Shown here: in pieces, positions 5 through 57,257 of the stretch
How positions within the stretch are numbered: the stretch's first letter is position 1
Layout of the letters: each line of letters opens with the position of its first letter
Assembly: GCA_041665545.1 (NCBI GenBank)
Contig: JBAYIQ010000001.1
Location: 137,911 to 201,910 of the forward strand
Source: Patescibacteria group bacterium
Lineage (GTDB): Bacteria > Patescibacteriota > Patescibacteriia > UBA1558 > GWA2-36-10
Length of the DNA stretch: 64,000 nucleotides
Reading direction: 5' to 3'
The notes under the pieces: generated by a model
Told to the model about the DNA's origin: nothing
Databases searched by the model: none
The model's input: the letters and a program-made list of their open reading frames with translations, nothing else
Translations under genes and position numbers: made by a program

Positions 5-1024
5 GTGTCTTGGACAAAAAAATTGGAAATTTATTCTGGAGAAACTACTTTTGCTGAAGATATTGTTTTATTTTTGGACAACCGAGAAAAAACCCATCTA
101 TCAGCCGGCAGTAATACTTGGATTATCAACAAACAACAAAACCAATATGGCTTTTTTGACTCGGAAAATAATCTAAATATCACCGACATTGAGCAGGAAA
201 AATCCCAAGTGGCCTTCAAATTCACGGAAAAATACCAATTAGTTGATTGGTCGCCGAACAACCAAGAAATTTTGCTAAGTCTCAAAAATGTTTATTATTT
301 ATTTAACTTGGACCAAAAAAATCTGCGCCAGTTAAATATCATTGCTCCGGATAAAATAATTTGGGACAACAATGATGCTGGTTTAATCTGGTACCAAAAA
401 AATAAAAAAATATATCGTCACTACACTAATCAGCCCGATGCCAAAGACCAAGCAATAAGCGTTGATTTATCTTTTGTTGACTTTGATGTTGTTGGCGATT
501 ATTTATTGACTCTAAGCACTGATGACAAAACCTTTCAATTCCAAAAAATAAAAAAAACCGATTTCTCAATAGCTGATAAAATAGAAAATCTTAACAAAGG
601 CGCGCTCAAGGCCTGGCAAGCAGATGACAAATTAAGTATATTTGCTTTGGGTGCTGGATTATACATCAAAAAAGCTGACACCAACCCCACAATCATCCCC
701 CACACCGTGGCTGATATTCATGATGACCGGATTTTATTTACCAATGGCTATGAGACCAGTGTTTATAATTTTAAAGAAGACTGGTCAACGCTTATTGATC
801 GCTCTACCAAAATTGTCACTGATGTCCTCTGGCATCCCAATGGCAGTTATTTCTTGAGCGAGAGCAATGATCAGACATTTATTACCGAGATTGATGGCCG
901 TGACAAAAGAAATACTATTTCCATCTTAGAAAATCCTCTAAAGAAATTATACCTGTTCAACAATAAAGGTGATAAATTATTTATTCTGACACCTGACGAA
1001 AATTTTTATTTGACGATACAATAA
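5..1024 (+). CDS. hypothetical beta-propeller (PD40/TolB-like repeat) protein, probably 5'-truncated by window edge
   Basis: ORF open to window start; PD40-like blade motifs (DWSPNNQEILLS, VLWHPNGSYFLSES); hairpin plus T-run at 1041-1075. Confidence 0.55.
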   Translation: MSWTKKLEIYSGETTFAEDIVLFLDNREKTHLSAGSNTWIINKQQNQYGFFDSENNLNITDIEQEKSQVAFKFTEKYQLVDWSPNNQEILLSLKNVYYLFNLDQKNLRQLNIIAPDKIIWDNNDAGLIWYQKNKKIYRHYTNQPDAKDQAISVDLSFVDFDVVGDYLLTLSTDDKTFQFQKIKKTDFSIADKIENLNKGALKAWQADDKLSIFALGAGLYIKKADTNPTIIPHTVADIHDDRILFTNGYETSVYNFKEDWSTLIDRSTKIVTDVLWHPNGSYFLSESNDQTFITEIDGRDKRNTISILENPLKKLYLFNNKGDKLFILTPDENFYLTIQ

Positions 1025-8469: not shown

Positions 8470-11400
8470 TTACATTGGCGATGGATGACTGCCAGGTGGA
8501 AACTTGTTAATAACACCCCTAACCGTGCTTTTAATAGACTCTGCTCCTTTTTTCAAAAAAGCTTGTCGCATAGCATTATCATCCAGCTTCAAAGCATCAA
8601 CCTTATGATCACCATCAGTATCAATCAAATAATGATCCGACCTTAAAGGCCAAACACCGGTATGATATTTCTGAACCAGAGCATACTCATCACCCATTTT
8701 CACTGGTACCCAATGACCAGATGGTATATCTTTGACTTTATCAAAACTATCAAGGGCCGAAGCTTCAAAGCCATGCATGTTTTCGGCAATAATTTGCGGA
8801 TTGCTTAAATCAAAATGTCCCGAACTTAAATCTATTTTATCACCACGCTTCAAAGCATTAATAAATAAATTAGTTTTCTCTTCAGACCAGCCGTGATCTC
8901 TAACATAATCATGTACTAATCCCGACAACTGTTCTTGATTACCACTGGCCACTACCTTAGCCACCAATTCATCTAGATGACCGGAGTTATTTGCCGCCTC
9001 ATATAGACCATGATTATAATCCCCGCCCTGTGTTAAAAATGTTTCCATTTGTTGTTGAGCAGCTGCTTGGGTAGCGGCCTCGGCAGCTTGAGCTGTGGCT
9101 GCTTCGGCGGCTGTTTTAGCTGCTATTTCAGTATCTACCAAATGCTGAGCACTTTCTTTAGCGTGATTTAATACATTGGCCAATTGATCTGAACTTATTG
9201 CTTGATGCGAATCAGCCAAGGTAAATGAACCATCAGCCAGTCTATCTACAGCCTGGCCATTGAATGTCCACTCATGCACAGAGCCATTAGGACTCAAAAA
9301 ATCTGTGCCAAAACTTCTAACCTCATGAGACACGACATCAACATTTTCTGTAGTTAAACGGACGCCAGCTTTGGCGGCTGCTTCTAAAGCGTCATTGTTG
9401 GCTAGTATGTTTGCCTCTCCACCGGCAGCAGCCATAGCATCAGCTCCGGCTTGTAAATGATCAATGGAATCCGAATGGCCAAGTACGCTGCTCAAATCGA
9501 TATTCTCACCAGGTATCAATTGATCAATATCGTGATGCAAACCAAATGCTTCTGGATGCGCGGCTGCGCTGTCTTTGACAGCGTCTATCATGTGAGTTTG
9601 TTTGGCCTCACCCAAGGCGCTCCATTTTTCATCACCCATTTGCTCGTGTACCTTGGCCTCAATAATTTTCCATAACGAATCACCTTTTTTTACTTTTACC
9701 ACAAAATCAATGTTTTTCGTATTCTGCTCAACTGCCTGTTCTGCTGCTACTTGAGTAGAATTAGTTGCGGCTTCATTAGCAGCATGAGCGGCTTGTTCAG
9801 CAGCATCAGCAACAGACTTAGCCATCATTTTTGCCGCCATTATATTAGAATAAATGCCAGCACCAACACCCAGACCAATAGATACGCCTTGCCTAATCAT
9901 TGACTTGGTACGATATTTATCAACCTCTGGTATCAGCTGTTCAGCACGTTCATCTTCAGTCTTTCCTTTGAGCACGTTCAACAAACGATTTGCGGTTTCT
10001 TGTTTTTTTTGTTCAGCTGAATCTTCTGTCCCCGCGACCTCTTCTTTCCCCTTTTCTTTTTGCCCGGCCTTTTCTTTGGTCTTATCTAAAACTGACTCTT
10101 TTAATTTTTCATAATAAATCTTTTCAAGAGTCTTTACTACTTCAGACTGAGCTGCTCCAAAGCGACCAGCTTCGGCCACTCCTACACCTTTTTCCAAGCC
10201 CATCCCCCTGAGGCGAGCCAACTCTACACCCAAATCTGATAATGATTTTTCCTTGAGGCTAGCTTCAAAAACATGTAACAATCTATCATGATTATTTTTA
10301 TCTTTCTCTTTATAAAAATTATACCCATGAACCTCGTCAATCAAACCTTTTTGTCCTAATCTCTTGGTTTTGGTATCCATCAATCCTTCGGCCGTCATAT
10401 AAGTACCACCACCAGAGGTAATGGTTCTACCAGCCACAAACGCTGAACTAGCAAAAACATTGGAAGCAACGGCATTTGTTAGACTACCCAATATACCACC
10501 GCTAGCAAAAGTAGCACCGGCACCAACGGCCATTAAGCCAATACCAGCTACCAGTCTGGCTTTACTATGTCTCTTCCACCATTCTTTAAACTTGTTCATG
10601 GTGTTTTTGTCGCCTGACTCTGCTAGAGCATCAACATTGGACTCCTCTTTTTGCAAATATTTAATATAAGCCTCGGCCAATACTTTTGGATCTAGTTCTC
10701 CACCAGCTTTCATGGCCTCAATTATCTCAATAATCTCGCCATGCTTTAATGATTCATATTTATCATGAGCTGAATCCAATTCATCTTGCGCCTCTTCTTT
10801 GTATCCACCAATCAAAAAATTACGATTCTTGCTAAATATTCTTTTTCTCTTTTTAACCAAATCAAAATATTTTGCTCGAGCATCATCAAAAGTAGCAATT
10901 TGCTCTGCTGTTCTTTCTGGTAAAATCACTGTTTTTTCCGGCTTTTGTCCAGACTCAGTCTTGGGACCTGGAACTGGTTCAGAAACAACTTCAGGGGGTG
11001 TTTCTGGACTCGTAGCTGCTGGTTTTATCGTTTCTGGCTCGGGATTAACAATCGGCTTTTTCTCAGCACCATTTTTTAATTTATTTATTTCGTCTTCAAT
11101 TTTTCTTATTCTGGCCTCAGCCAATAAGACTGCCTGCTCCAAAGCATCGGGTACTAATAAATCTTGTTCTTCTTTTGATTTCTGCAAAATAGCTGTGGCT
11201 AAGTCTGGCTTACCTAATAATTGAGCGGCTTCTTGCAAAGCACTTAATTTAGTTTCCCTAGTTTTGGCTGAATTAATTTCGGTAATCAAATCTTTCAATG
11301 GAGCTATCAATCTCTCCATTTGGGCTGTTTTTATTTCAACTTCCAAGTCTCTGATTTTATTTTCAACTGACAACTGGGCTTGCTCCAAGGTAGAGCTAAG

Positions 11401-12162
11401 TTCTGTGGATTGATCAGCAAATCTAGGATCATTAAGTAAAACAGCGGCTTGCTCAAGAGATCTTTGTTTCAATGTACGGTCACTTTTTTGTATGGCAATA
11501 TTTATTTCGTCAAGTAAGGCCTTCAGACGACTTATGCTGCCCTTAATCCTAGCATCCCTAATATCGTGCTTTGCTTCAAAAATTACTGGCTCATTCTCCA
11601 TTGTATCGGTCACAATTGCCTCGGACGATTTGATGTTATCTTGAACAGGAATTTCTAAGTTAATAACTGGCTCGCTGGGTTTTTCATTAATCAGTAAATC
11701 TCTATTATGTAATTTTAAAACCGCTTCCTTGAGATGTGATTCTAGGGTACCGGGTATTTCTTTTTCGTTTATCTTACCCCGACGAAAAGCATTTATCCTA
11801 TCCGTCACCATGTCCGCATCAATCTCCTTCATATGCTGACCAATCTGCGAGTACAATTCCAACCAATCATTGGCCCCTGAATAATCAAAATTTTCAAACT
11901 CTGGAATTTTAGGTGCTTCTGGTTTTCCATCTAAAACGAGTTTCACTTCTTTTTTACTAACATTTGCTAATACATCAACTTCCGCTGTCAAATCAGGCTC
12001 ATCAGAACCTTCTTCTGCTCGAAAATTGGTTGCCACACCATCAATCTTCTCTATAAATTGGTTACCCTCGGCTACCACCTCTTGGTTGGAGGGTTCTGGG
12101 GCCTGCTCCTGACCAGCGGTTTCGAACACAGGAGTAACTTCTGGAGATTTTTTATCTGTCAT
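8470..12162 (-). CDS. giant hypothetical membrane/coiled-coil protein with LysM-like motif (1230 aa)
   Basis: Acidic coiled-coil N-terminal part; Gly/Ala-rich TM-like segments (RLVAGIGLMAVGAGATFASGG, SIGLGVGAGIYSNIMAAKMM); KVKKGDSLWKIIEAKV LysM-like. Confidence 0.7.
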   Translation of the reverse strand: MTDKKSPEVTPVFETAGQEQAPEPSNQEVVAEGNQFIEKIDGVATNFRAEEGSDEPDLTAEVDVLANVSKKEVKLVLDGKPEAPKIPEFENFDYSGANDWLELYSQIGQHMKEIDADMVTDRINAFRRGKINEKEIPGTLESHLKEAVLKLHNRDLLINEKPSEPVINLEIPVQDNIKSSEAIVTDTMENEPVIFEAKHDIRDARIKGSISRLKALLDEINIAIQKSDRTLKQRSLEQAAVLLNDPRFADQSTELSSTLEQAQLSVENKIRDLEVEIKTAQMERLIAPLKDLITEINSAKTRETKLSALQEAAQLLGKPDLATAILQKSKEEQDLLVPDALEQAVLLAEARIRKIEDEINKLKNGAEKKPIVNPEPETIKPAATSPETPPEVVSEPVPGPKTESGQKPEKTVILPERTAEQIATFDDARAKYFDLVKKRKRIFSKNRNFLIGGYKEEAQDELDSAHDKYESLKHGEIIEIIEAMKAGGELDPKVLAEAYIKYLQKEESNVDALAESGDKNTMNKFKEWWKRHSKARLVAGIGLMAVGAGATFASGGILGSLTNAVASNVFASSAFVAGRTITSGGGTYMTAEGLMDTKTKRLGQKGLIDEVHGYNFYKEKDKNNHDRLLHVFEASLKEKSLSDLGVELARLRGMGLEKGVGVAEAGRFGAAQSEVVKTLEKIYYEKLKESVLDKTKEKAGQKEKGKEEVAGTEDSAEQKKQETANRLLNVLKGKTEDERAEQLIPEVDKYRTKSMIRQGVSIGLGVGAGIYSNIMAAKMMAKSVADAAEQAAHAANEAATNSTQVAAEQAVEQNTKNIDFVVKVKKGDSLWKIIEAKVHEQMGDEKWSALGEAKQTHMIDAVKDSAAAHPEAFGLHHDIDQLIPGENIDLSSVLGHSDSIDHLQAGADAMAAAGGEANILANNDALEAAAKAGVRLTTENVDVVSHEVRSFGTDFLSPNGSVHEWTFNGQAVDRLADGSFTLADSHQAISSDQLANVLNHAKESAQHLVDTEIAAKTAAEAATAQAAEAATQAAAQQQMETFLTQGGDYNHGLYEAANNSGHLDELVAKVVASGNQEQLSGLVHDYVRDHGWSEEKTNLFINALKRGDKIDLSSGHFDLSNPQIIAENMHGFEASALDSFDKVKDIPSGHWVPVKMGDEYALVQKYHTGVWPLRSDHYLIDTDGDHKVDALKLDDNAMRQAFLKKGAESIKSTVRGVINKFPPGSHPSPM

Positions 12163-12165
12163 ATA

Positions 12166-12333
12166 CTAAAAATTACTATTAATTTTATTTAATATGTCAT
12201 CAATTTCCGCTTTATTACTGGCCTCACTTTTCTTTTGACGTCGACTAATGGCTTCTTGTTTCAATTTATTTACAGCCAACAAAAAATTGTTATAAATCTC
12301 TTTAATTTTAGAAATCTTTTGGTTGTTATCCAT
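12166..12333 (-). CDS. small coiled-coil ORF (55 aa), not in ORF track
   Basis: ATG 12333; MDNNQKISKIKEIYNNFLLAVNKLKQEAISRRQKKSEASNKAEIDDILNKINSNF; stop 3 nt before the giant gene ATG. Confidence 0.35.
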   Translation of the reverse strand: MDNNQKISKIKEIYNNFLLAVNKLKQEAISRRQKKSEASNKAEIDDILNKINSNF

Positions 12334-12337
12334 AAAA

Positions 12338-12640
12338 TTAAACAATGGCCGTCTTGACTTTGCCCATTTCCACTTTCAAATCATCAATAATACTTTGATA
12401 AATTTCTTTATAATCCGACACTTTGGTAGCAATAAATTGATCGGCTTTTTCGGGATCATTGTCTCCTAATAATTTATCCAGGGCTTGTTTATCACCTTCT
12501 GACAAGCGAGTTAAAACCACACGGTTGAAACGAGTGGTTACTAATTCCATAATTTGCTCTTGAATTTCCTGCTTTTTTTCTTCAGGCAAGTCTTCTAGAC
12601 CAAATTCTTTAAAAAAATCTAATTGATTTGTGGAGTCCAT
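12338..12640 (-). CDS. hypothetical acidic protein (100 aa)
   Basis: Clean ORF, host-like composition, first gene of a 3-gene string ending in the giant gene. Confidence 0.6.
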   Translation of the reverse strand: MDSTNQLDFFKEFGLEDLPEEKKQEIQEQIMELVTTRFNRVVLTRLSEGDKQALDKLLGDNDPEKADQFIATKVSDYKEIYQSIIDDLKVEMGKVKTAIV

Positions 12641-12692
12641 AAAAATAAGTATTAGCTTAATAATAATACGACTTAATTATAAAATCTTTCGG

Positions 12693-12744
12693 CAAAAAAA
12701 ACAAGCCCCAACCTCTGCACGCGTTGTGCAAAAAAGGTTGGGGC
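12693..12744 (-). terminator. intrinsic terminator of high-GC cassette 1
   Basis: GCCCCAACC ... GGTTGGGGC stem followed by U-run on minus strand, 20 nt after stop. Confidence 0.7.
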
Positions 12745-12762
12745 CCGTACGAATCTTGGAAA

Positions 12763-14079
12763 CTAGGCGGCTTCCGCACCCTCGGCAATGTAGGGTGCGA
12801 TCGACCCGAGCTGTCTGTCCACCAGGACACGCAACTCGCTGCGACCAGCGAAATCGGTCTTAGCCACAGCATCGACGGCCAGTTTGACGGCCGAGCCGAT
12901 ATCGGGATTATTGAGAGCGGTGACCAGAGGCATCAGCTCAGCCAGACGAGCATCGCCCTTGCCCTCGGCAGTGATCACTGCGATCCTCTTGTCGAGGGCG
13001 GTCTTGACGACATCGATACGCTTGGCCGCCAGCTCGTTCAGTCGAGCCTGAACCTCTGGGCTGGGTGTCGGGTCCTCAATCAGAACACTCTTTACCTTAT
13101 AGCCCGAAACGCTTTCCAGCCGGGCAATGGCCTCATCCCAGTTCGCGTCTTCAAAGACGCCGCCGACTTGGATCTTCTCCAGAGTTTGACCCTTAAGGAG
13201 AACCCGAAAGTCAGCACCGAAGATTTCACTCGCATACTTGACCAAGCCGGCATCAGTCCGCACCTCGGGCGGAGCAGACCAATAGGCATTCAGATTCTCC
13301 GGCCCATCAAGAATGGGGATGAACTTAACATTTACATCTCCCCCGACCTCGATATCGGGTTCACCATCAAGACCTGGGATCTTGCCACCAAGAGTAGGTA
13401 TTTTCTCAGTGACACAAGAGAGTTGTAAACCACGTCTTTCCAGGACGACATTGAATTCGAGACCTGGGGCATTCCTAGGAATCTTCGTCCGGTGGAAACC
13501 GTTGTAGAAGACATACTTGTCGAACATCCACCAGGCGTGAAAGCAACGGCGTCCGAACAGTTTCGGCGTCCATAGTTCCTGCTCCGGAACCTGAATGTTC
13601 ATGATGGCCATCGTAGATCCCGTGGCCAACGACCAAAAAATCACGGTCACCATGTGACCAAATGTCAGGATACCCAAGGTCAGGCACACGCCAGTCACAA
13701 TTGTCGAATAGAATGCCCAGGTGTCTCGCTTGTTGCCAAGCCACGGCCGCGGTTTGTAGGTGTAGTAGGCCTGTAGCGCCGTAATAGCCGCAACGAGCAG
13801 TGCCAACACCACACGAAACCACGGGAAATTGTGGGAGACCTCCTTACCAGCTGTCTTTCCAACTGTCACAGCTGTCTTTACGTCCTCAACTACAGCCGAC
13901 GGCGCAAAAAACAGCCAGTGATGGTTCCAGGAAGCGGCCAGCACTCCCACAGCCAGCAAGGCCGTGGTAATGATCGCTCTCCACCCCACCTTCAGCTTTG
14001 TGCTGTTATTGACCAGCGCGGCAACAACGGACACGATGATCGCAATCACCGCATCAAGGACGAACTTGTTCTGAAACAT
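12763..14079 (-). CDS. high-GC membrane protein with C-terminal SPFH (band-7/prohibitin)-like domain (438 aa)
   Basis: AAAGGAGGGG RBS 2 nt before ATG; 4-5 N-terminal TMs; SPFH-like core (FGRR...PGLEFNVV...) and Ala/Glu-rich tail (AVITAEGKGDARLAEL); G+C-rich vs flanks. Confidence 0.75.
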   Translation of the reverse strand: MFQNKFVLDAVIAIIVSVVAALVNNSTKLKVGWRAIITTALLAVGVLAASWNHHWLFFAPSAVVEDVKTAVTVGKTAGKEVSHNFPWFRVVLALLVAAITALQAYYTYKPRPWLGNKRDTWAFYSTIVTGVCLTLGILTFGHMVTVIFWSLATGSTMAIMNIQVPEQELWTPKLFGRRCFHAWWMFDKYVFYNGFHRTKIPRNAPGLEFNVVLERRGLQLSCVTEKIPTLGGKIPGLDGEPDIEVGGDVNVKFIPILDGPENLNAYWSAPPEVRTDAGLVKYASEIFGADFRVLLKGQTLEKIQVGGVFEDANWDEAIARLESVSGYKVKSVLIEDPTPSPEVQARLNELAAKRIDVVKTALDKRIAVITAEGKGDARLAELMPLVTALNNPDIGSAVKLAVDAVAKTDFAGRSELRVLVDRQLGSIAPYIAEGAEAA

Positions 14080-14112
14080 GACCCCTCCTTTGGGGTAATA
14101 GGTTAACGATTG

Positions 14113-14141
14113 ACTATCTATACATTTCCAAGACTTGTCAA
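14113..14141 (-). promoter_or_regulatory. putative promoter of cassette 1 (TTGACA-N17-GATAGT)
   Basis: tgtcaa 14136-14141 and actatc 14113-14118 on plus strand, 17-nt spacer. Confidence 0.45.
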
Positions 14142-14388
14142 CGAACTTGCCAAAAACCTATGTTTTGTGACAATATATTATTATATCACTTTTTTCTATT
14201 TTAGTCAAGAAATAGCTGCTCCCCAATATTTGACACCAGGGCTTGTCAATTTAATACTAAAGTTTGATGTAACTACGTCTCGCACGCCAAAGCAAACTTT
14301 AATTAATAAATTAAATTTTTTTATAGGCCACTATCCCTCCTTAAGTGTCAAGCATTGGATTTTAACGCGACGGCGTGTCAATATTTTT

Positions 14389-15249
14389 CTACTTCTGACA
14401 AATTGGACAAAAATGTGTGCCTCTACCAGCTATTTTGTGTTTTTTTATTTCGGTTTTTTTACACTTTAGGCAGAGTTGTTTAGCGCGACCATAAACTTTC
14501 AAATATTTTACATAGGCCCCCCCGTTGCCATCTGCAGTCCGATAATCACTGAAAGTAGTGCCACCAAATTTTACTGCTTTGTTCATGATATAGTGACAAG
14601 CCTGGAAAATCTTTTTCTTATCTTGATCCCCAAGTGTGCTAACTCGCCTATCAGGCCTGACACTAGCCCGAAAACAAATTTCATCAGCATAGATATTGCC
14701 AATGCCGGAAAAAATCTGCTGATTCAATAAAACGCTTTTTAAGACACCACTTTTTTTATTTATGGCTGACAAAAAATTCGGTAACGTAAAATTTTTAGTC
14801 AATGGCTCGAGTCCATATTTTTTTCTAATTTCTTCTTTAGCCAAATGACTGACTATTTTGAAATAACCAAATTGCCGCAGATCATTGTAAAACAAAATAG
14901 ATTTATCAGAAAAATATAATATAATATGAGAATATTTATTGGGCAACTCTTGACTGATTGGCAAATTATGACCACCAGCCACAATATTTTTTTTATTTTT
15001 ATAGATCAATTGACCGGTCATTTTCAAATGCACCAGCAAATAATCATTACCTTTTTTTAATTTAAAAATTAAGAGCTTACCAACTCGATCTACCTTGGAA
15101 AAACTATTGCCTACTAATTTTTTTCTAAACTCAAAAATATCACCATGAATCTGTTTGATTTTGTGGATCTCTATTTTTACAATCTTTTTATTAACAATTT
15201 TGGCTTGCAAACCACGCCTAATTGTCTCAACTTCTGGTAGTTCTGGCAT
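14389..15249 (-). CDS. mutM: formamidopyrimidine-DNA glycosylase
   Basis: MPELPEVETIRRGL N-terminus, H2TH, C-terminal zinc finger CLKC...CPICQ. Confidence 0.9.
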   Translation of the reverse strand: MPELPEVETIRRGLQAKIVNKKIVKIEIHKIKQIHGDIFEFRKKLVGNSFSKVDRVGKLLIFKLKKGNDYLLVHLKMTGQLIYKNKKNIVAGGHNLPISQELPNKYSHIILYFSDKSILFYNDLRQFGYFKIVSHLAKEEIRKKYGLEPLTKNFTLPNFLSAINKKSGVLKSVLLNQQIFSGIGNIYADEICFRASVRPDRRVSTLGDQDKKKIFQACHYIMNKAVKFGGTTFSDYRTADGNGGAYVKYLKVYGRAKQLCLKCKKTEIKKHKIAGRGTHFCPICQK

Positions 15250-29741: not shown

Positions 29742-29769
29742 ATTTTATTGATCTTCGAAATAACGAGTT

Positions 29770-30103
29770 GGGGGGTGTTGGGACGCTCGAGAAGTCCTGG
29801 GGACACCTGCTAGTTGTGGTCAGGGCCCGAACTGTTTGGGCTCGCTGTAATCCCGCAAAGGTTAGCGGGTGCAGTTTATCAGACCACGGATGGCAATCCT
29901 GATCCTTGTCTGTTGGGACAATGGGGATGGACCCGTCTTATCGTCGTCCCGAGGCCTCGGGCGACCAGCTGGCAGTGCCGATTTTTGAAAAACGTTCCCC
30001 ACAGACGGTGACGTGAAGCGCTCACGTTTCCTAGCGGGGATATCCTTGGCCAGGAGAGAATACAGGCCTCGGCTTACCTTCAGGACTTGTCCTGGCACCC
30101 CCC
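29770..30103 (+). ncRNA. rnpB: RNase P RNA (bacterial type)
   Basis: P1 pairing GGGGGGTGTTGGGAC / GTCCTGGCACCCCCC; CR-I-like CGAGAAGUCCUGGGG; CR-V-like GAGAAUACAGGCCUCGGCUUAC. Confidence 0.75.
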
Positions 30104-30119
30104 GTGTTCCTACCGATGA

Positions 30120-30160
30120 GGAGTCTTTGTCTACACCATGGCAAGACTCCTTTTCTTTTT
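30120..30160 (+). terminator. rnpB terminator
   Basis: GGAGTCTT ... AAGACTCC stem followed by TTTTCTTTTT. Confidence 0.7.
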
Positions 30161-30220
30161 GTTTAAAATAAAGAAATACCGCCGTCGAACCAGTGGGTTC
30201 GATGGCGGTACGAAATGTCC

Positions 30221-30412
30221 CTACACCTTCATGCAGGGAGCGTGAGGTGTGTCGCGATGCAAGCGCAGCTTCTCGGGAGTGATGTTGTTCCCGCACTCCG
30301 CCATACTGCACTTGACGCAATGCTCGCTCTTGAGGTGCCGAAGCCCCCTTTCCGAACGCGGAAGCGTTCTCCTGTTCGCATTGTTCCCCTTGGTGACCTG
30401 CTTCTTGCCCAT
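30221..30412 (-). CDS. high-GC small basic Cys/His-rich protein (63 aa)
   Basis: CAAGGAGGGA RBS 3 nt before ATG 30412; MGKKQVTKGNNANRR...HCVKCSMAEC...HAPC; own promoter and hairpin terminator (30180-30213). Confidence 0.55.
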   Translation of the reverse strand: MGKKQVTKGNNANRRTLPRSERGLRHLKSEHCVKCSMAECGNNITPEKLRLHRDTPHAPCMKV

Positions 30413-50836: not shown

Positions 50837-51253
50837 TCACTTGCTCACACTGGGAAAATGCGGGTCACGGTACTCGTCATTGTCGTCTTTGACAACGAAA
50901 GGAGAAACATCCTCCAAGCGCAACTCGGTGGTGCAGATGAAGGGTGACGACTCGACGACACGCGGTGGTTGAAACAGATTGGCCTCAGGAGTCAGCTTAG
51001 AGGCCAAAAAGTCCCGAATCCTCCTATGCCAGAGCAAGCCCAATGGCTTCTTGTTCTTCCTTTGCCAGACCAACTCCAAGCGCCAAGGCCTTTCCTCAGC
51101 CGTGATCGACACCTCCAAGCCACGATGGCTGATGTACTTCATAATCTCCGGCAACAGTAGCCCAAGCTGCTGACCCAGATGCCTCCTGACAGCCAAGGTG
51201 TTGACATGACGACCGTTAGCGAACTTAATGTCAGCTCTTTTCTTACCGACCAT
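50837..51253 (-). CDS. high-GC hypothetical protein (138 aa)
   Basis: CAAGGAGGAA RBS 6 nt before ATG; own promoter; hairpin AGAACGCGT...ACGCGTTCT terminator (50790-50818). Confidence 0.6.
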   Translation of the reverse strand: MVGKKRADIKFANGRHVNTLAVRRHLGQQLGLLLPEIMKYISHRGLEVSITAEERPWRLELVWQRKNKKPLGLLWHRRIRDFLASKLTPEANLFQPPRVVESSPFICTTELRLEDVSPFVVKDDNDEYRDPHFPSVSK

Positions 51254-51303
51254 GAGCTATTCCTCCTTGAAGGTTCAAGTGCCCCAAAAAATGGGAATAT
51301 GAT

Positions 51304-51332
51304 AACATATAATATTTATCCCCTCTTGTCAA
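51304..51332 (-). promoter_or_regulatory. promoter of cassette 3 (TTGACA-N17-TATGTT)
   Basis: tgtcaa 51327-51332 on plus strand. Confidence 0.45.
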
Positions 51333-51382
51333 TGGCAAAACAAAAAAACAACCCAGTGGGTTGATTATTAATAATGCATGCT

Positions 51383-51507
51383 CTCGTGTCCCTCGACTCA
51401 CTCCGTTCGCTCGGGACACTCGATTCGCAGGAATGAGAATGGTCGGAGGTGCGATAAAGCACCGTAGACCACGAGTGAGTCTTTTGCAAAGCAAAAGGCG
51501 AATCGAG
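51383..51507 (-). repeat. tRNA-trailer structured element, copy E3 (fused to CCA of tRNA-Lys)
   Basis: 125 nt; near-identical to E1 over the tRNA-proximal ~70 nt; followed by AACCCACUGGGUU+U7 terminator (51347-51372). Confidence 0.7.
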
Positions 51508-51584
51508 TGGTGCGCCCAGTAGGATTCGAACCTACGACCGTTTGCTTAAAAGGCAACTGCTCTACCAGGCTGAGCTATAGGCGC
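51508..51584 (-). tRNA. tRNA-Lys (anticodon TTT), CCA encoded
   Basis: GCGCCTA/TGGGCGC acceptor, loop CTTTTAA, T arm GTAGGTTCGAATCCTAC. Confidence 0.9.
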
Positions 51585-51607
51585 ATAAATATAAAAATAC
51601 GCAAATT

Positions 51608-51636
51608 ATTATAGATTAATTATTGGGTATTGTCAA
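51608..51636 (-). promoter_or_regulatory. tRNA-Lys promoter TTGACA-N17-TATAAT
   Basis: tgtcaa 51631-51636, attata 51608-51613 on plus strand. Confidence 0.6.
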
Positions 51637-51666
51637 TTTTGCTTTAATACACCTTTAGCGCTGTTA

Positions 51667-51695
51667 TTGACAAAAATAAATAAATATGATATAGT
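51667..51695 (+). promoter_or_regulatory. promoter of cassette 4 (TTGACA-N17-TATAGT, TGa extended -10)
   Basis: TTGACA 51667-51672, TATAGT 51690-51695; 5' UTR hairpin TCCTAATCAGA/TCTGATTAGGA. Confidence 0.55.
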
Positions 51696-51800
51696 AACGA
51701 ACTTGTTCTTTATAAACTCCTAATCAGAATTTTGTCCAGCAAATTGCCTGATAAAGCTCTGATTAGGAAACTATCACTTCTCTGAACTGGAGGACTTACC

Positions 51801-52700
51801 ATGGATTACCCGCGGAACTCGGTCTGCATCTATCACAGTGCGGACAATGACGGCGCTTGCAGTGCGGCCATCGCCAAGTTGGCGGCTCGTGTCAGACTGA
51901 TCCCCTGGAATTATGGACACCCCATACCCTGGGAGAGAATACCCGTCGGCGCTACGATCTTTGTGGTCGATCTGCTGCTCACCAGCCAGAACGACAACAG
52001 TGGTTTCCAGGACATGGAGCGCCTGCGCAAGATCGGTAAGCTCGTCTGGATTGACCATCACGACAAGGCCATCAACGACGCCAAAGTGTTGGGTTTGGCC
52101 TATGATGGCATCCAGCGAGTTGGTCAGGGCGCTTGCGCTTTGACCTGGGAATATTTCTTCCCCAACAAGCCCATGCCCGAAGCAGTCCGGCTGATCAGTA
52201 ACTTCGATGTCTTTGACCATAGGGAGGTAAAGACAGTCCATTTCCAGTACGGCTTGCGTGCTTGCAATGCCAAGCCCTGGATGGACATTTGGAAAGATCT
52301 TCTTAAGCCACCCTTCCAAAGCGATGCTCTGGTCAACCAGCTGGTCAGTGATGGTATCCCCATCACCAAGTACCTGACCTTGGAATTCGCCCGCTACATG
52401 CGAGTCTGTGGCTTCGAGACTATTCTCGACGGGCACCGTGCCATTGCGGTGAATCGTGCTCTGGTCAACAGCCAGATCTTCGAATCTGTACACAACCTCG
52501 AAGACTATCCGTTGCAGATGTACTTTTACTGGAGCTCTGACGGCTCATGGAAGGTGAGCATGCGTTCGCCCGACGGTCGCGTGAACTGTGCAGAACTCGC
52601 AGCCAAGTACGGTGGTGGCGGACACAGCCGAGCAGCCAGTTTCGTGTGCCAGGAACTGCGCTTTGAACTCAAAGGGCGACCTGACGCCGATCCTGACTGA
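51801..52700 (+). CDS. high-GC DHH/DHHA1-family phosphoesterase (NrnA-like, 299 aa)
   Basis: YHSADNDGACS (DHH motifs I-II), WIDHHDK (DHH), YGGGGHSRAAS (DHHA1 GGGH); CTGGAGGAC RBS. Confidence 0.85.
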   Translation: MDYPRNSVCIYHSADNDGACSAAIAKLAARVRLIPWNYGHPIPWERIPVGATIFVVDLLLTSQNDNSGFQDMERLRKIGKLVWIDHHDKAINDAKVLGLAYDGIQRVGQGACALTWEYFFPNKPMPEAVRLISNFDVFDHREVKTVHFQYGLRACNAKPWMDIWKDLLKPPFQSDALVNQLVSDGIPITKYLTLEFARYMRVCGFETILDGHRAIAVNRALVNSQIFESVHNLEDYPLQMYFYWSSDGSWKVSMRSPDGRVNCAELAAKYGGGGHSRAASFVCQELRFELKGRPDADPD

Positions 52701-55882: not shown

Positions 55883-55958
55883 ATAAAATCGTGGTTAATT
55901 TCTACCACGTGCACCTTAGCAAGACACAAGGTAAATATGGCCAATGGAGGTCCTTGAA

Positions 55959-56693
55959 ATGGAAAAGACCGAAAAGACCGCCTTTGCTGTTCTGCACATG
56001 AGCCGTCACGAATCCAGCTCGCCCCAAGCCAACTATGGCCTGGGAACACTGGGTCCCATGGACTACCGCGGAATCCCGGTTCGCTACCACCCCAATTCCT
56101 TCATGCGTGACTCCGGTTACCGCATGCTGGAAATCCAGCTCCCGAAGAACCAGAACGAAGCGGGAGTCGCGATGGCTGTCATGCACGCAGGTCAGATTCG
56201 GGGAGCCATCAGTTCCCTGCAGGATCAGCTCAACAGTCTGACACCGGAAAAGATCTCCCACTACAACCTGATGATCAACGAACTGCTTCGCAAGGGCTAC
56301 CTGATGCACAGCCAAGTCCTCTACTTCAAACCCTGGCAATCCGGTCTCGTGGCCAAGTACGGCTGGGGCATCAATGGCTCTGGTGGCATGGTCATGTTCG
56401 GACAGAACAACTTCGGACAGAGCTTCGGAGTACAGGCCGGACACCAGCTGGTGCAGGTGGTCTTCCGACCCACTCCGTACGCCGACGGACTGATCTGTCG
56501 CTACGGCTGGGGCATCACCGTATGCCAGCCGGAAAGCATCAAACGTGTGCTGAGTGGTCTGCGCAAGCAGCTCGACAACGCCGTGTTCTTCCAGGAGCAC
56601 GGCTGTCTACTCGAAGACTTCGATCGGCCGAGTCTGGCATGCCGACTGATCGCCCGTCAGGCGACCCACGCGTGCCAGCAAACCACCGCATAG
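55959..56693 (+). CDS. high-GC hypothetical protein (244 aa) with duplicated YGWGI motif
   Basis: GGAGG 8 nt before ATG 55959 (tracked ORF starts 55944); VAKYGWGINGSGG and ICRYGWGITVCQ; no family recognised. Confidence 0.65.
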   Translation: MEKTEKTAFAVLHMSRHESSSPQANYGLGTLGPMDYRGIPVRYHPNSFMRDSGYRMLEIQLPKNQNEAGVAMAVMHAGQIRGAISSLQDQLNSLTPEKISHYNLMINELLRKGYLMHSQVLYFKPWQSGLVAKYGWGINGSGGMVMFGQNNFGQSFGVQAGHQLVQVVFRPTPYADGLICRYGWGITVCQPESIKRVLSGLRKQLDNAVFFQEHGCLLEDFDRPSLACRLIARQATHACQQTTA

Positions 56694-56721
56694 CGAGCAA
56701 CTGCTTGCTACGGTGACAACG

Positions 56722-56768
56722 ACAGGACATTTTCTGACGCCAAGCGTCTGAAGGTGTCCTGTTTTCTT
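56722..56768 (+). terminator. terminator of cassette 5
   Basis: ACAGGACA ... TGTCCTGT stem then TTTTCTT. Confidence 0.7.
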
Positions 56769-56771
56769 ATA

Positions 56772-56800
56772 TTGACAATAGCTATATTATATGCTATAAT
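56772..56800 (+). promoter_or_regulatory. promoter of cassette 6 (TTGACA-N17-TATAAT, TGc extended -10)
   Basis: TTGACA 56772-56777, TATAAT 56795-56800. Confidence 0.6.
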
Positions 56801-56858
56801 ATTAAATGTACCCCAGGATTCTAGTCTCGGGTTGTTCATTTCCAAGGAGGGATTTCTC

Positions 56859-57257
56859 ATGAGTCCGAAACAGCTTGCTGCCATCCCGTTCTGCATTTTG
56901 ACCGTAGTTGCCATGTTCTTATGGGTTGCCGGTCGTCCCACTGGCAAGCCCGACACAACGCGACTCTTCTCAATTGGGACTGATGCCCATCAGGTTCCGT
57001 GTGGTGACATCGGCTACGATGCCACCTTCCGCTACTATGCCGGAAACGACACGGCGGGCGTGACGGTAGCCAATCTCAATCCCGGGCTCGTAACGATCCA
57101 TCTCATGGATCGCCTGAGCAGGGATATCTACGGACGCAAACCCGTGCGGATCAACGGTGATCAGGCCAACCTGGAGATCATCAACAACGCCACCAATGAG
57201 GTGATTTGCCGCTGGCAGATCACCATCGATCGTCAGGTCGGTGTTGCCACCCGCTGA
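56859..57257 (+). CDS. high-GC small membrane-anchored/secreted protein (132 aa)
   Basis: CAAGGAGGGA RBS 7 nt before ATG 56859; N-terminal hydrophobic helix AAIPFCILTVVAMFLWVAG. Confidence 0.65.
   Translation: MSPKQLAAIPFCILTVVAMFLWVAGRPTGKPDTTRLFSIGTDAHQVPCGDIGYDATFRYYAGNDTAGVTVANLNPGLVTIHLMDRLSRDIYGRKPVRINGDQANLEIINNATNEVICRWQITIDRQVGVATR

Follow-up and report, generated by a model that had tools for sequence, protein, structure and literature searches.

A clade-restricted, GC-rich SPFH-family gene in a fixed chromosomal slot of a Parcubacteria clade, with recombining allele classes and a predicted folded transcript

The gene characterized here encodes a putative SPFH-family membrane protein and lies in a 64-kb window (the whole stretch of DNA that was analysed, 64,000 nt). 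With a probability of roughly 60%, we consider it to be a lineage-restricted gene that resides in one chromosomal slot, occurs as recombining allele classes and owes its high GC content to selection on a folded transcript. An anomalous base composition is normally read as a sign of recent horizontal transfer, and this locus is a counter-case, where some force keeps the GC3 of a single gene 15-50 points higher than that of its genome. The features of the locus are collected in Table 1.

Table 1. Features of the SPFH-family gene and its transcription unit (positions in the window)
Feature	Position	Strand	Basis or remarks
Sigma-70-type promoter, TTGACT-17 nt-TATAAT, extended TG	14180..14208	minus	consensus match 11/12
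5'-end hairpin, TTGTCACAAAAC-ATAG-GTTTTTGGCAA	14147..14173	minus	predicted transcript 5' end; start site inferred from the -10 box
Clamp 5' arm, GTCTTGGAAA	14125..14134	minus	in the ~95-nt leader, just downstream of TTGACA (14136-14141); inverted repeat I8
Shine-Dalgarno sequence, AAAGGAGGGG	14082..14091	minus	read from sequence; CCCC/GGGG on either side
SPFH-family gene (CDS)	12763..14079	minus	438 aa, ATG start, GC3 0.64
N-terminal membrane domain, residues 4-159, five TM helices	13603..14070	minus	AlphaFold2 and hydropathy
SPFH (Band 7) alpha/beta domain, residues ~161-335	13075..13599	minus	predicted structure, Foldseek
Long C-terminal helices, residues 341-390 and 395-413	12841..13059	minus	AlphaFold2 secondary structure; counterparts of the CC1/CC2 helices of SPFH cages
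Clamp 3' arm, stop codon TAG plus TTTCCAAGAT	12753..12765	minus	inverted repeat I8, duplex energies, covariation
Intrinsic terminator, outer stem GCCCCAACC/GGTTGGGGC, T8 run after	12694..12746	minus	predicted fold

The initial annotation had described the ORF as a GC-rich, stand-alone cassette of foreign composition between a hypothetical operon and mutM, and its length, GC content and position were borne out. The gene has a GC content of 0.549 and a GC3 of 0.636, compared with a window mean GC of 0.397 and GC3 values of 0.28-0.33 in the adjoining genes, and the rise in GC runs from codon 1 to the stop codon. At third positions of the coding strand G3 approximates C3, with no marked excess of G over C. 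With a promoter and a terminator of its own, the gene forms a monocistronic unit, situated between mutM (14389-15249) and an operon containing DUF5663, 59-aa and 1230-aa genes (8470-12640). Its surroundings contain no direct or inverted repeats such as bound a mobile element, no tandem repeats and no integrase or mobility genes, and no second copy, fragment, silent cassette or paralogue was found within the 64-kb window. A 150-bp insert specific to the window is not a duplicate of the leader.

A family member is present in 14 loci from independent assemblies of one Parcubacteria clade. The flanking genes of the slot are on the contig in 13 of these loci, the order being mutM, SPFH gene, DUF5663, an ORF of approximately 55 aa (p55) and a giant protein; in the remaining locus (L010), the only neighbour visible is a short unannotated ORF upstream. 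The slot is filled in all 13 over MutM identities ranging from 53% to 93%. The GC3 of family members is 0.47-0.73 compared with 0.19-0.40 in adjoining genes, 15-50 points above the flanks for every allele; the elevation extends throughout the CDS in 40-codon blocks, and in all but one of the 14 loci the 100-nt flanks are AT-rich. The family comprises only 17 clusters among 1.84 billion representatives, and all members retrieved with flanking genes occupy this slot. No relatives were found beyond the clade: tblastn searches of 50,697 phage records and 72,556 plasmids and a search of IMG/VR viral contigs with a 6-sequence alignment gave no family member, and neither a close homologue in a GC-rich genome or element nor a sister genome with an empty slot was found. 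A metagenome scan anchored on MutM yielded only three loci, which were distant and lacked the SPFH gene.

While the slot is constant, its content is not. Among the window, L003, L004, L011 and L012, MutM is 91-93% identical and the SPFH gene only 56-58% or 31-32% identical; for L001, L013 and L018, the corresponding values are 85-88% and 23-29%. Synonymous divergence between the window and L003 is 1.43 for the SPFH gene and 0.36 for mutM, and between classes dS is 1.4-1.5 compared with 0.36-0.39 for mutM. Inside one class, dS is 0.24-0.38 for the SPFH gene (dN/dS 0.14-0.21) and 0.29-0.38 for mutM; the gene evolves there at a mutM-like synonymous rate under purifying selection. Breakpoints fall inside the CDS: based on blastn and sliding identity, the L004 allele is chimeric, with a 5' part resembling that of the window and a remainder resembling L008. 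The locus accordingly has the conserved flanks, over-diverged centre, incongruent alleles and mosaic breakpoints of hypervariable allele replacement, and what behaves as a cassette is the coding region, whose deep allele classes replace one another while the regulatory flanks stay conserved. The adjoining DUF5663 gene is also dimorphic, incongruent with mutM and swapped between deep classes, yet it is AT-rich (GC3 approximately 0.19-0.40). Because this swapped neighbour is AT-rich, hypervariability is separable from GC richness, and recombination alone does not explain the latter.

The initial annotation had assigned the gene a TTGACA promoter; this hexamer exists and scores 10/12, but it is situated inside the conserved leader of approximately 95 nt, and the conserved promoter is the TTGACT-17-TATAAT element upstream, which is near-invariant in 12 of 13 aligned loci (including the distant L008, L013 and L010) and unrecognisable in L019. 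Because this promoter is further upstream, the transcription unit extends approximately 67 nt past the upper limit that had been given. The predicted 5'-end hairpin has an RNAalifold consensus of 8 pairs, 2 of them with compensatory changes. The ribosome binding site and terminator proposed earlier were both confirmed. The Shine-Dalgarno region is conserved (in L001, L013 and L018 as an ACCCT...AGGGT variant), and its CCCC and GGGG surroundings could form a small hairpin. The terminator has a predicted fold energy of -35.7 kcal/mol (z -4.83); its outer stem covaries between loci (GCCCCGAC/GTCGGGGC, GCCCCGG/CCGGGGC and CTCCCGATCC/GGTCGGGAG), while an inner hairpin, TGCAC-AACGC-GTGCA, is kept among loci with proteins only approximately 25% identical. 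An Rfam search of positions 12600-14400 at E ≤ 5 gave no match.

These results bear on the reading first suggested by the composition, that a donor of higher GC recently supplied the gene as a cassette, which entered between mutM and the operon downstream and has yet to ameliorate. The difference in composition (GC 0.55 compared with 0.40 for the window, GC3 0.64 compared with approximately 0.30) and the possession of its own promoter and terminator are what such a cassette would show, and the genome contains other GC-rich stand-alone ORFs, one of which encodes a phage-type DHH phosphoesterase beside a tRNA gene. We nevertheless consider recent acquisition highly improbable for several reasons. 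First, the slot is occupied in every related locus with flanking genes on the contig. Second, the promoter, leader and terminator are conserved. Third, the dS of the SPFH gene equals that of mutM inside an allele class. Fourth, the few clusters retrieved with flanks are all from this slot, and the phage, plasmid and viral contig collections searched contain no relative. Fifth, mobile-element repeats and an integrase are lacking. Of the hallmarks of recently acquired genomic islands and horizontally transferred cassettes (patchy presence, relatives in distant taxa or mobile elements, and flanking repeats, a tRNA gene or an integrase), none was found; anomalous composition is the only trait in common. 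The foreign composition described initially is therefore real as a GC anomaly but fails as a sign of recent transfer, because the anomaly is common to every positional orthologue in the clade and is confined to the coding sequence. The refuting condition set initially, orthologues with both the same context and host-like GC in all related genomes, came out divided: orthologues have an identical context wherever flanking genes are on the contig, but none has host-like GC. Taken together, the gene appears to be a resident of a fixed chromosomal slot and not a foreign insert.

Folding of the predicted transcript offers a different source for the GC content. An inverted repeat pairs the leader with the stop codon region, forming a predicted long-range duplex (the clamp) with energies of -12.6 to -19.8 kcal/mol; its sequences fall into three covarying classes, between which pairing is weak, and the clamps of L001 and L011 contain G.U replacements. 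The clamp is found in the MFE fold of the full-length mRNA in 10 of 11 loci. To our knowledge, a covarying duplex closing a 1.4-kb mRNA is unusual in bacteria other than in small toxin mRNAs. The alternative that the flanking inverted repeat marks an invertible DNA segment was set aside, as a single orientation is found in 14/14 loci and pairing is kept via G.U changes, which matter only in RNA. The coding region was also compared with synonymous shuffles, made inside 150-nt windows instead of over the whole gene to control for local composition. Twelve alleles had a mean z of -3.94, compared with -1.01 in a control set of 31 genes (Mann-Whitney p 7e-7), although a similar z was seen in 2 of the 31 control genes and two other GC-rich ORFs were intermediate (z approximately -2). 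More structure is predicted in the sense strand (z -4.49) than in the antisense strand (z -3.29), and the excess of RNA structure is moderate, approximately 8-15% of the MFE.

Because all alleles are GC3-rich and the mRNA is predicted to carry the 5' hairpin and the covarying duplex and to fold more stably than synonymous recodings, selection on the transcript is the most likely cause of the GC content. High-expression codon usage was rejected as a cause: the gene for ribosomal protein L21 has a GC3 of 0.28, which means that high expression in this genome does not go with GC-ending codons. A further explanation is GC-biased gene conversion at a recombination hotspot, in which case the GC enrichment would be passive and the RNA features incidental. 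The evidence for repeated homologous exchange and intragenic mosaicism is strong, and the per-site synonymous W>S rate is approximately 2.4 times that of mutM with a similar S>W rate. Higher GC3 has been described in recombining bacterial genes (PMC4450053), and the recombining vls cassettes of Borrelia have 49% GC in a genome of 28.6% GC (PMC11499132). On the other hand, a shift of 15-50 GC3 points looks, in our judgement, very large for a recombination effect such as that in PMC4450053. The enrichment stops at the start and stop codons, yet recombination joints lie in the flanks as well as inside the CDS; DUF5663 is also swapped but has no such GC3; and the third-position G-over-C excess of vls is not marked here. 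Nor would gene conversion lead one to expect folding in excess of composition-matched synonymous shuffles, or a covarying duplex between the two ends. We regard it as possible but rather unlikely as the whole explanation. Synonymous changes polarised within one allele class gave 32 W>S and 58 S>W for the SPFH gene (equilibrium GC3 approximately 0.47) and 25 W>S and 29 S>W for mutM (equilibrium GC3 approximately 0.27). The higher equilibrium of the SPFH gene is in keeping with maintained GC, but the counts are small, come from three sequences and could include imported tracts. By these counts the SPFH gene is now losing GC, and part of its high GC may have another source.

The gene is not the only one of its kind in the window. 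A 63-aa peptide gene, o138, the DHH gene and o249 are likewise GC3-rich and stand-alone, and they share a TTGACA promoter whose -10 is extended, together with a long leader and a strong Shine-Dalgarno sequence and terminator. Such units resemble morons (promoter, gene and terminator), and the slot might be repeatedly refilled from a pool of them on an unsampled GC-rich phage or element. In keeping with this, the DHH protein matches the phage family phrog_4771 (E 5e-37), Band-7 proteins are encoded by phages (BFVD matches at E 2e-9), three family members match phrog_200, and codon usage is correlated between the SPFH gene and the other GC-rich ORFs (r 0.61), although this RSCU correlation is largely expected from shared GC3. 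The conserved flanks are chromosomal, however, and the family is absent from the phage, plasmid and IMG/VR collections searched. In a second genome, o249 and o138 have orthologues that are equally GC-rich and occupy conserved positions, so these two genes look resident too. We therefore find refilling from such a pool improbable. A bolder proposal extends selection on mRNA folding to a class of stand-alone genes, of which the SPFH gene would be the best-sampled member and o249 a candidate: their GC-enriched transcripts, with a 5'-3' duplex and a 5' hairpin, would escape ribonucleases directed at AU, or await processing before they are translated, and the SPFH cassette would be swapped at the population level through involvement of the scaffold in a phage or host conflict. 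This extension is speculative and we hold it to be doubtful; if true, it would give SPFH proteins a role in recognition or something like defence, which they have not been assigned before.

Four or five N-terminal TM helices and a C-terminal SPFH-like core had been proposed for the protein. Hydropathy and AlphaFold2 place five helices at residues 4-24, 31-52, 87-108, 120-138 and 143-159, with pLDDT 80-92 over TM3-5, and positive-inside counts over 18 family members suggest that the N-terminus is outside and the C-terminus inside. The SPFH domain and the long helices that follow it would then probably face the cytoplasm; the tail beyond these helices is modelled with low confidence. The SPFH core has fold and profile support but is remote. 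The window protein does not match Pfam Band_7 (PF01145) even at E ≤ 10, searches of NCBIfam and PADLOC gave no match, and PHROGs gave a marginal match that is not significant. Among relatives, P0017 matches Band_7 at E 6.6e-11 (43 bits, cut-off 23.6), while the homologous region of P0010, P0012 and P0021 matches below the threshold (E 1e-3 to 1e-2). A family profile of 17 sequences searched against the PDB gave nine SPFH chains as top matches (E 1.5e-4 to 4e-3); matches from a shallow 6-sequence profile were to helical-repeat proteins only and were judged spurious. AlphaFold2 models reached pLDDT 58 with the 6-sequence alignment and 74.5 with 17 sequences, and in Foldseek against the PDB every one of the best 17 matches is an SPFH protein (E 3e-8 to 9e-5), with alignments covering 280-340 columns of full-length stomatin, HflK/C and prohibitin at 11-18% identity to solved structures. 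Support for the SPFH assignment comes from the profile of the family, a single relative and structure predictions whose mean pLDDT is 58-75. The order of membrane anchor, SPFH domain and coiled-coil helices is that expected for SPFH proteins, but the anchor consists of five TM helices and not one helix or hairpin. As stated initially, there is no NfeD partner: none is annotated in any related locus, NfeD (PF01957) is absent from the precomputed Pfam lists of neighbouring genes in those loci, and none was found in the protein itself at E ≤ 10.

In the model that we favour, in which a resident gene is shaped by selection on its transcript, homologous recombination would swap all or part of the deep coding-region classes between genomes that are nearly identical elsewhere. 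Maintained selection on the mRNA as a folded molecule would keep GC high, for stability and/or throttled translation, and recombination-associated GC bias may contribute additionally. The protein, with its five-helix membrane domain fused to an SPFH domain and long helices, should by analogy with other SPFH proteins assemble as a membrane ring or cage. Frequency-dependent selection, perhaps from phage or host interaction, is suggested by the depth and shuffling of the allele classes, and in a CPR core-genome slot these classes hint at an unrecognised conflict or recognition function. The locus offers a way to separate biased gene conversion from mRNA-structure selection in bacteria, and the SPFH superfamily would gain a five-TM, NfeD-less, clade-specific branch.

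The best profile and fold matches of the protein are to E. coli QmcA, which is accompanied by the NfeD protein YbbJ (PDB 8z5g), and Pyrococcus PH1511 (PDB 3bk6, 8gn9), in both of which the SPFH domain is followed by long helices. These stomatin-type proteins have one TM hairpin or helix, whereas the window protein has five TM helices, no nearby NfeD gene and no Pfam Band_7 match; its SPFH domain is probably on the cytoplasmic side, as in theirs. HflK/HflC (PDB 7vhq, 7wi3), flotillins and prohibitins share the fold over 280-310 Foldseek columns including the coiled-coil helices. HflK and HflC, however, are paired paralogues with one TM helix each, a periplasmic SPFH domain and FtsH as client, while the SPFH gene is single, with no paralogue in the 64-kb window. 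Phage Band-7/SPFH proteins such as that of Streptomyces phage StarPlatinum (A0A345M8S3, E 1.8e-9) also match the predicted fold, but phage collections contain no sequence-level relative, and the SPFH gene is chromosomal and fixed in position.

Two known systems resemble the locus in other respects. The vls locus of Borrelia is a recombining hypervariable locus approximately 20 GC points above its AT-rich genome in every strain (PMC11499132), and the SPFH locus is also recombining, hypervariable and raised in GC above an AT-rich genome. Unlike vls, which has silent cassettes, a G-rich coding-strand skew and a surface lipoprotein product, the SPFH gene has no silent copies in the 64-kb window and G3 close to C3, and its variation is between genomes and not within a cell. 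In hok, long-distance pairing of the 5' and 3' UTRs (tac/fbi) stabilises the mRNA and blocks translation until 3' processing (PMC9841398). The SPFH transcript is predicted to have a similar conserved duplex closing the whole mRNA. The hok mRNA, however, is approximately 400 nt in length, encodes a small toxin and is paired with an antisense RNA, while the SPFH duplex would span approximately 1.4 kb and close an mRNA for a 438-aa scaffold protein, which is not known to have an antisense RNA or to be processed and whose locus has no Rfam match.

Capsule/O-antigen, pilin and pherotype loci combine conserved flanks with deep central alleles, tree incongruence and mosaic alleles. The SPFH slot has the same traits, and differs from these loci in that it holds a single inner-membrane scaffold gene, probably cytoplasm-facing, with an anomalous composition.

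The window is AT-rich (GC 0.397) and matches Patescibacteria MAG protein record WCV69_00785. Its SPFH gene, confirmed as a 438-aa ORF with an ATG start, has a GC content of 0.549 and a GC3 of 0.636, compared with a GC3 of 0.28-0.33 in the adjacent genes, and the initial annotation had described it as a cassette of foreign composition. Fourteen related loci were retrieved from independent assemblies (Logan, ENA, JGI, NCBI and GTDB representatives), and each carries a family member. In all 13 with flanking genes, this lies between mutM and an operon of DUF5663, a ~55-aa ORF and a ~900-1550-aa protein, the upstream side comprising mutM plus an SdpI-like gene in three cases; the L010 contig has only a short unannotated upstream ORF beside the family member. 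The same slot is kept even by members ~25% identical to the window protein. GC3 is 0.47-0.73 for the SPFH gene in 14/14 loci versus 0.19-0.40 for neighbouring genes. The GC anomaly is therefore real and lineage-wide, but with its slot shared in this way the gene is resident in the chromosome and not a foreign insert. Orthologues of identical context and host-like GC had been proposed as a check: the context is the same, but host-like GC occurs at none of the loci. The elevation spans the entire CDS from first codon to stop (40-codon blocks), and the 100-nt flanks are AT-rich in 13/14 loci. The strongest depletion at third positions is that of A (0.07-0.15 vs 0.26-0.41); G and C are both raised with no marked excess of G over C.

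In the more distant members L005, L006, L007 and L019, mutM and the SPFH gene are separated by an SdpI/DUF1648 membrane protein gene. The GTDB/NCBI records of L011 and L013 (CAZILH01 and CAYRIU01) bear the title "uncultured Gammaproteobacteria bacterium"; L021 belongs to the assembly of L011. All three contigs have a locus of Parcubacteria type, their MutM being 78-93% identical to that of the window, and the taxonomy under which they were deposited is probably wrong.

The SPFH coding region has undergone allele replacement and mosaicism, while its regulatory flanks are conserved. MutM identity and SPFH gene identity are uncoupled across loci: five genomes with MutM 91-93% identical hold three allele types (deeply diverged versions of the CDS), namely the window's own, that of L003, L011 and L012 (88-90% mutual identity, 56-58% to the window) and that of L004 (31-32% identity). 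In L001, L013 and L018, MutM is 85-88% identical and the SPFH gene only 23-29%. The L004 allele is nearest to that of L008 (47%), though MutM of L008 is only 69% identical. By blastn, the window and L004 share 91% identity in mutM and again from the promoter through the leader to ~210 nt into the CDS, no similarity across the CDS body, and 89% at the terminator. Sliding identity shows the L004 allele to be a chimera, with ~70 window-like codons and an L008-like remainder. Between allele types dS is saturated (1.4-1.5, versus 0.36-0.39 for mutM), whereas within the L003/L011/L012 type it is 0.24-0.38, matching mutM (0.29-0.38), with a dN/dS of 0.14-0.21. Hence the alleles are old and functional, were exchanged by recombination, and did not arise by runaway point mutation. 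The classes may reflect frequency-dependent selection.

Like the SPFH gene, the DUF5663 gene is incongruent with mutM, yet it is AT-rich. It forms at least two deep classes (window, L008 and L005 versus L001, L002, L004 and L019) with 21-29% identity between them, and the window and L004, whose MutM proteins are 92% identical, differ in class. The giant protein encoded downstream is fast-evolving (39.5% identity where MutM has 79%).

An RBS (AAAGGAGGGG) and a terminator (GCCCCAACC/GGTTGGGGC followed by T8) were found where the initial annotation had placed them. The predicted fold of the terminator has an energy of -35.7 kcal/mol (z -4.8); across loci the outer stem covaries and encloses a conserved inner hairpin. 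The TTGACA proposed as the promoter (14141) is present, with a 10/12 match, but sits within a conserved ~95-nt leader; a promoter with a better score is located 67 nt further upstream and is the conserved one. The spacer between mutM and the SPFH gene also contains ~150 bp unique to the window genome, with two copies of TTGACAC, the palindrome TTGACAAGCCCTGGTGTCAA, and a 6-codon ORF preceded by the RBS-like TAAGGAGGG. In eight related loci aligned across the spacer, the mutM stop runs straight to the promoter without this insert, which does not duplicate the leader. In the leader (14125-14173 and aligned related leaders), TTGACAAGT-like words recur: at a spacing of 12 nt they form a near-direct repeat, which is exact in L003, L004 and L011, and the 5' end bears an inverted TTGTCA. 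A DNA-binding regulator might use these repeats as its operator, instead of or besides their being an RNA element.

Coordinates of features in the window and in the SPFH gene product
Feature	Position	Strand	Remarks
Giant protein gene	8470-12162		
DUF5663 gene	12338-12640		
Stop codon and following bases, TAGTTTCCAAGA	12753-12765		clamp arm
SPFH gene	14079-12763	minus	438 aa
Leader segment, GTCTTGGAAA	14125-14134		clamp arm
Promoter TTGACT-17-TATAAT, extended TG	14208-14180	minus	score 11/12; conserved in 12/13 aligned related loci
Spacer insert	14221-14376		
GC-rich stretch, ~370 nt	~29760-30130		
63-aa ORF	30221-30412	minus	
Second GC-rich island	50837-52700		
138-aa ORF	second GC-rich island	minus	GC3 0.67
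tRNA gene	51511-51584		
299-aa DHH/DHHA1 phosphoesterase	51801-52700		GC3 0.68
Five TM helices	residues 4-24, 31-52, 87-108, 120-138, 143-159		AlphaFold2 model
SPFH domain	residues ~161-335		AlphaFold2 model
C-terminal helices	residues 341-390 and 395-413		AlphaFold2 model

The 5' and 3' ends of the transcript show covarying complementarity. A leader segment can pair with the stop codon and the bases that follow it, and this duplex (the clamp) is found in 11 loci at predicted energies of -12.6 to -19.8 kcal/mol. There are three sequence classes (TCTTGGAAA/TTTCCAAGA; GGAAACC..GGGT/ACCC..GGTTTCC in L008; CTCCCAAAAAGTCA/TGACTTTAGGGAG in L010), whose arms pair strongly with the partner of their own class and poorly across classes; in L001 and L011, pairing is maintained via G.U changes. 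The clamp appears in the predicted MFE fold of the full 1.36-1.58-kb transcript in 10/11 loci, and the predicted 5' end would form a hairpin, with some compensatory change. When synonymous codons were shuffled within 150-nt windows, the CDS was predicted to fold more stably than its shuffles in 12/12 alleles (mean z -3.94, range -5.45 to -2.41), compared with a mean z of -1.01 (sd 1.08, minimum -3.45) for 31 other window genes (Mann-Whitney p 7e-7) and ~-2 for two other GC-rich ORFs. This excess stability is distributed over the length of the gene and is larger on the sense strand (z -4.49 vs -3.29 for the antisense strand).

Synonymous changes were polarised among L003, L011 and L012. On small counts, the SPFH gene has 58 changes from G/C to A/T and 32 in reverse, which at a GC3 of ~0.62 implies an equilibrium near 0.47 and net GC loss at present; mutM has 29 and 25 (equilibrium GC3 near 0.27). 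The per-site rate towards G/C in the SPFH gene is ~2.4 times that of mutM. Biased gene conversion (PMC4450053) is a serious partial rival as the source of the GC excess. GC-ending codons are not the high-expression usage of this genome, because L21 has a GC3 of 0.28.

Other GC-rich islands occur in the window. In the second, a 138-aa ORF and a DHH gene lie on either side of a tRNA gene. The DHH protein scores much better against phage family phrog_4771 (E 5e-37) than against Pfam DHH, and is the main support for a weaker rival explanation, a GC-rich mobile gene pool. For the SPFH gene, no relatives were found in phage, plasmid and viral collections, no boundary repeats around it and no second copy within the 64-kb window. 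L021 (MutM 93% identical) also keeps the 138-aa ORF, with GC just as high, but has no DHH gene; that interval holds a small DUF5698 ORF and a 43-aa ORF. Two further GC3-rich ORFs, of 249 aa (GC3 0.74) and 167 aa (GC3 0.61), are present at 55944-57257 of the window. In the 249-aa gene, a TTGACA-17-TGnTATAAT promoter precedes a leader with a hairpin and a 12-nt segment (CACCTTAGCAAG) complementary at 11/12 positions to the sequence directly 3' of the stop codon, a design shared with the SPFH gene. Among 5.8 billion proteins its product has a single homologue, of 87% identity, whose gene occupies the equivalent position in L021 (10001-10750; GC3 0.77). Finally, a GC-rich, stand-alone, Cys-rich 63-aa ORF with its own TTGACA promoter and terminator is followed by a GC-rich stretch (29760-30412 in all, minus strand). 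The 801-nt region here has a whole-fold z of -6.5; neither an Rfam match (E<=1) nor a tRNA or tmRNA was found in it, and it may be an undescribed structured RNA.

Several kinds of evidence assign the protein to the SPFH superfamily, as the initial annotation had suggested from its core. In direct scans it had no match in Pfam, NCBIfam or PADLOC and only a marginal one in PHROGs. A word-indexed search of 5.8 billion proteins gave six relatives, and when 1.84 billion representatives were searched exhaustively by HMM the family came to 17 clusters, of 410-514 aa except for two that are fragmentary and two that are long and repetitive. Among the relatives, P0017 clears the Pfam Band_7 threshold (E 6.6e-11) and three others score slightly under it. 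With the 17-sequence family profile, only SPFH chains lead the list of a PDB sequence search (QmcA 1.5e-4, PH stomatin 3e-4, then stomatin and HflK). An AlphaFold2 model from the 17-sequence alignment has a pLDDT of 74.5 (80-92 over residues 87-350). For this model, each of the best 17 Foldseek PDB matches is a stomatin, HflK/C, QmcA, prohibitin or flotillin (E 3e-8 to 9e-5), and in BFVD there are matches to phage Band-7 proteins (E 2e-9). Five TM helices were modelled where four or five had been expected. Positive-inside counts over 18 family members favour an outside N-terminus and a cytoplasmic SPFH domain, and the product would probably assemble into a cage. No family member has an NfeD gene annotated in its vicinity, in agreement with the earlier reading of a protein without a partner. 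The protein represents a new and very narrow branch within a known superfamily; its membrane anchor is unusual, and NfeD is lacking.

We found no description in the literature of such behaviour at the gene level, in which a compositional anomaly persists across positional orthologues, alleles are exchanged like cassettes, and the mRNA is predicted to be closed and over-structured. The Borrelia vls cassettes, at 49% GC in a 28.6% GC genome (PMC11499132), are a precedent for a recombining locus held GC-rich, but the SPFH locus has neither the GC skew nor the silent cassettes of vls. For the closed mRNA, the analogue is the hok tac/fbi fold-back (PMC9841398), and by this analogy the GC excess may serve the folding, stability or translational throttling of the SPFH mRNA.
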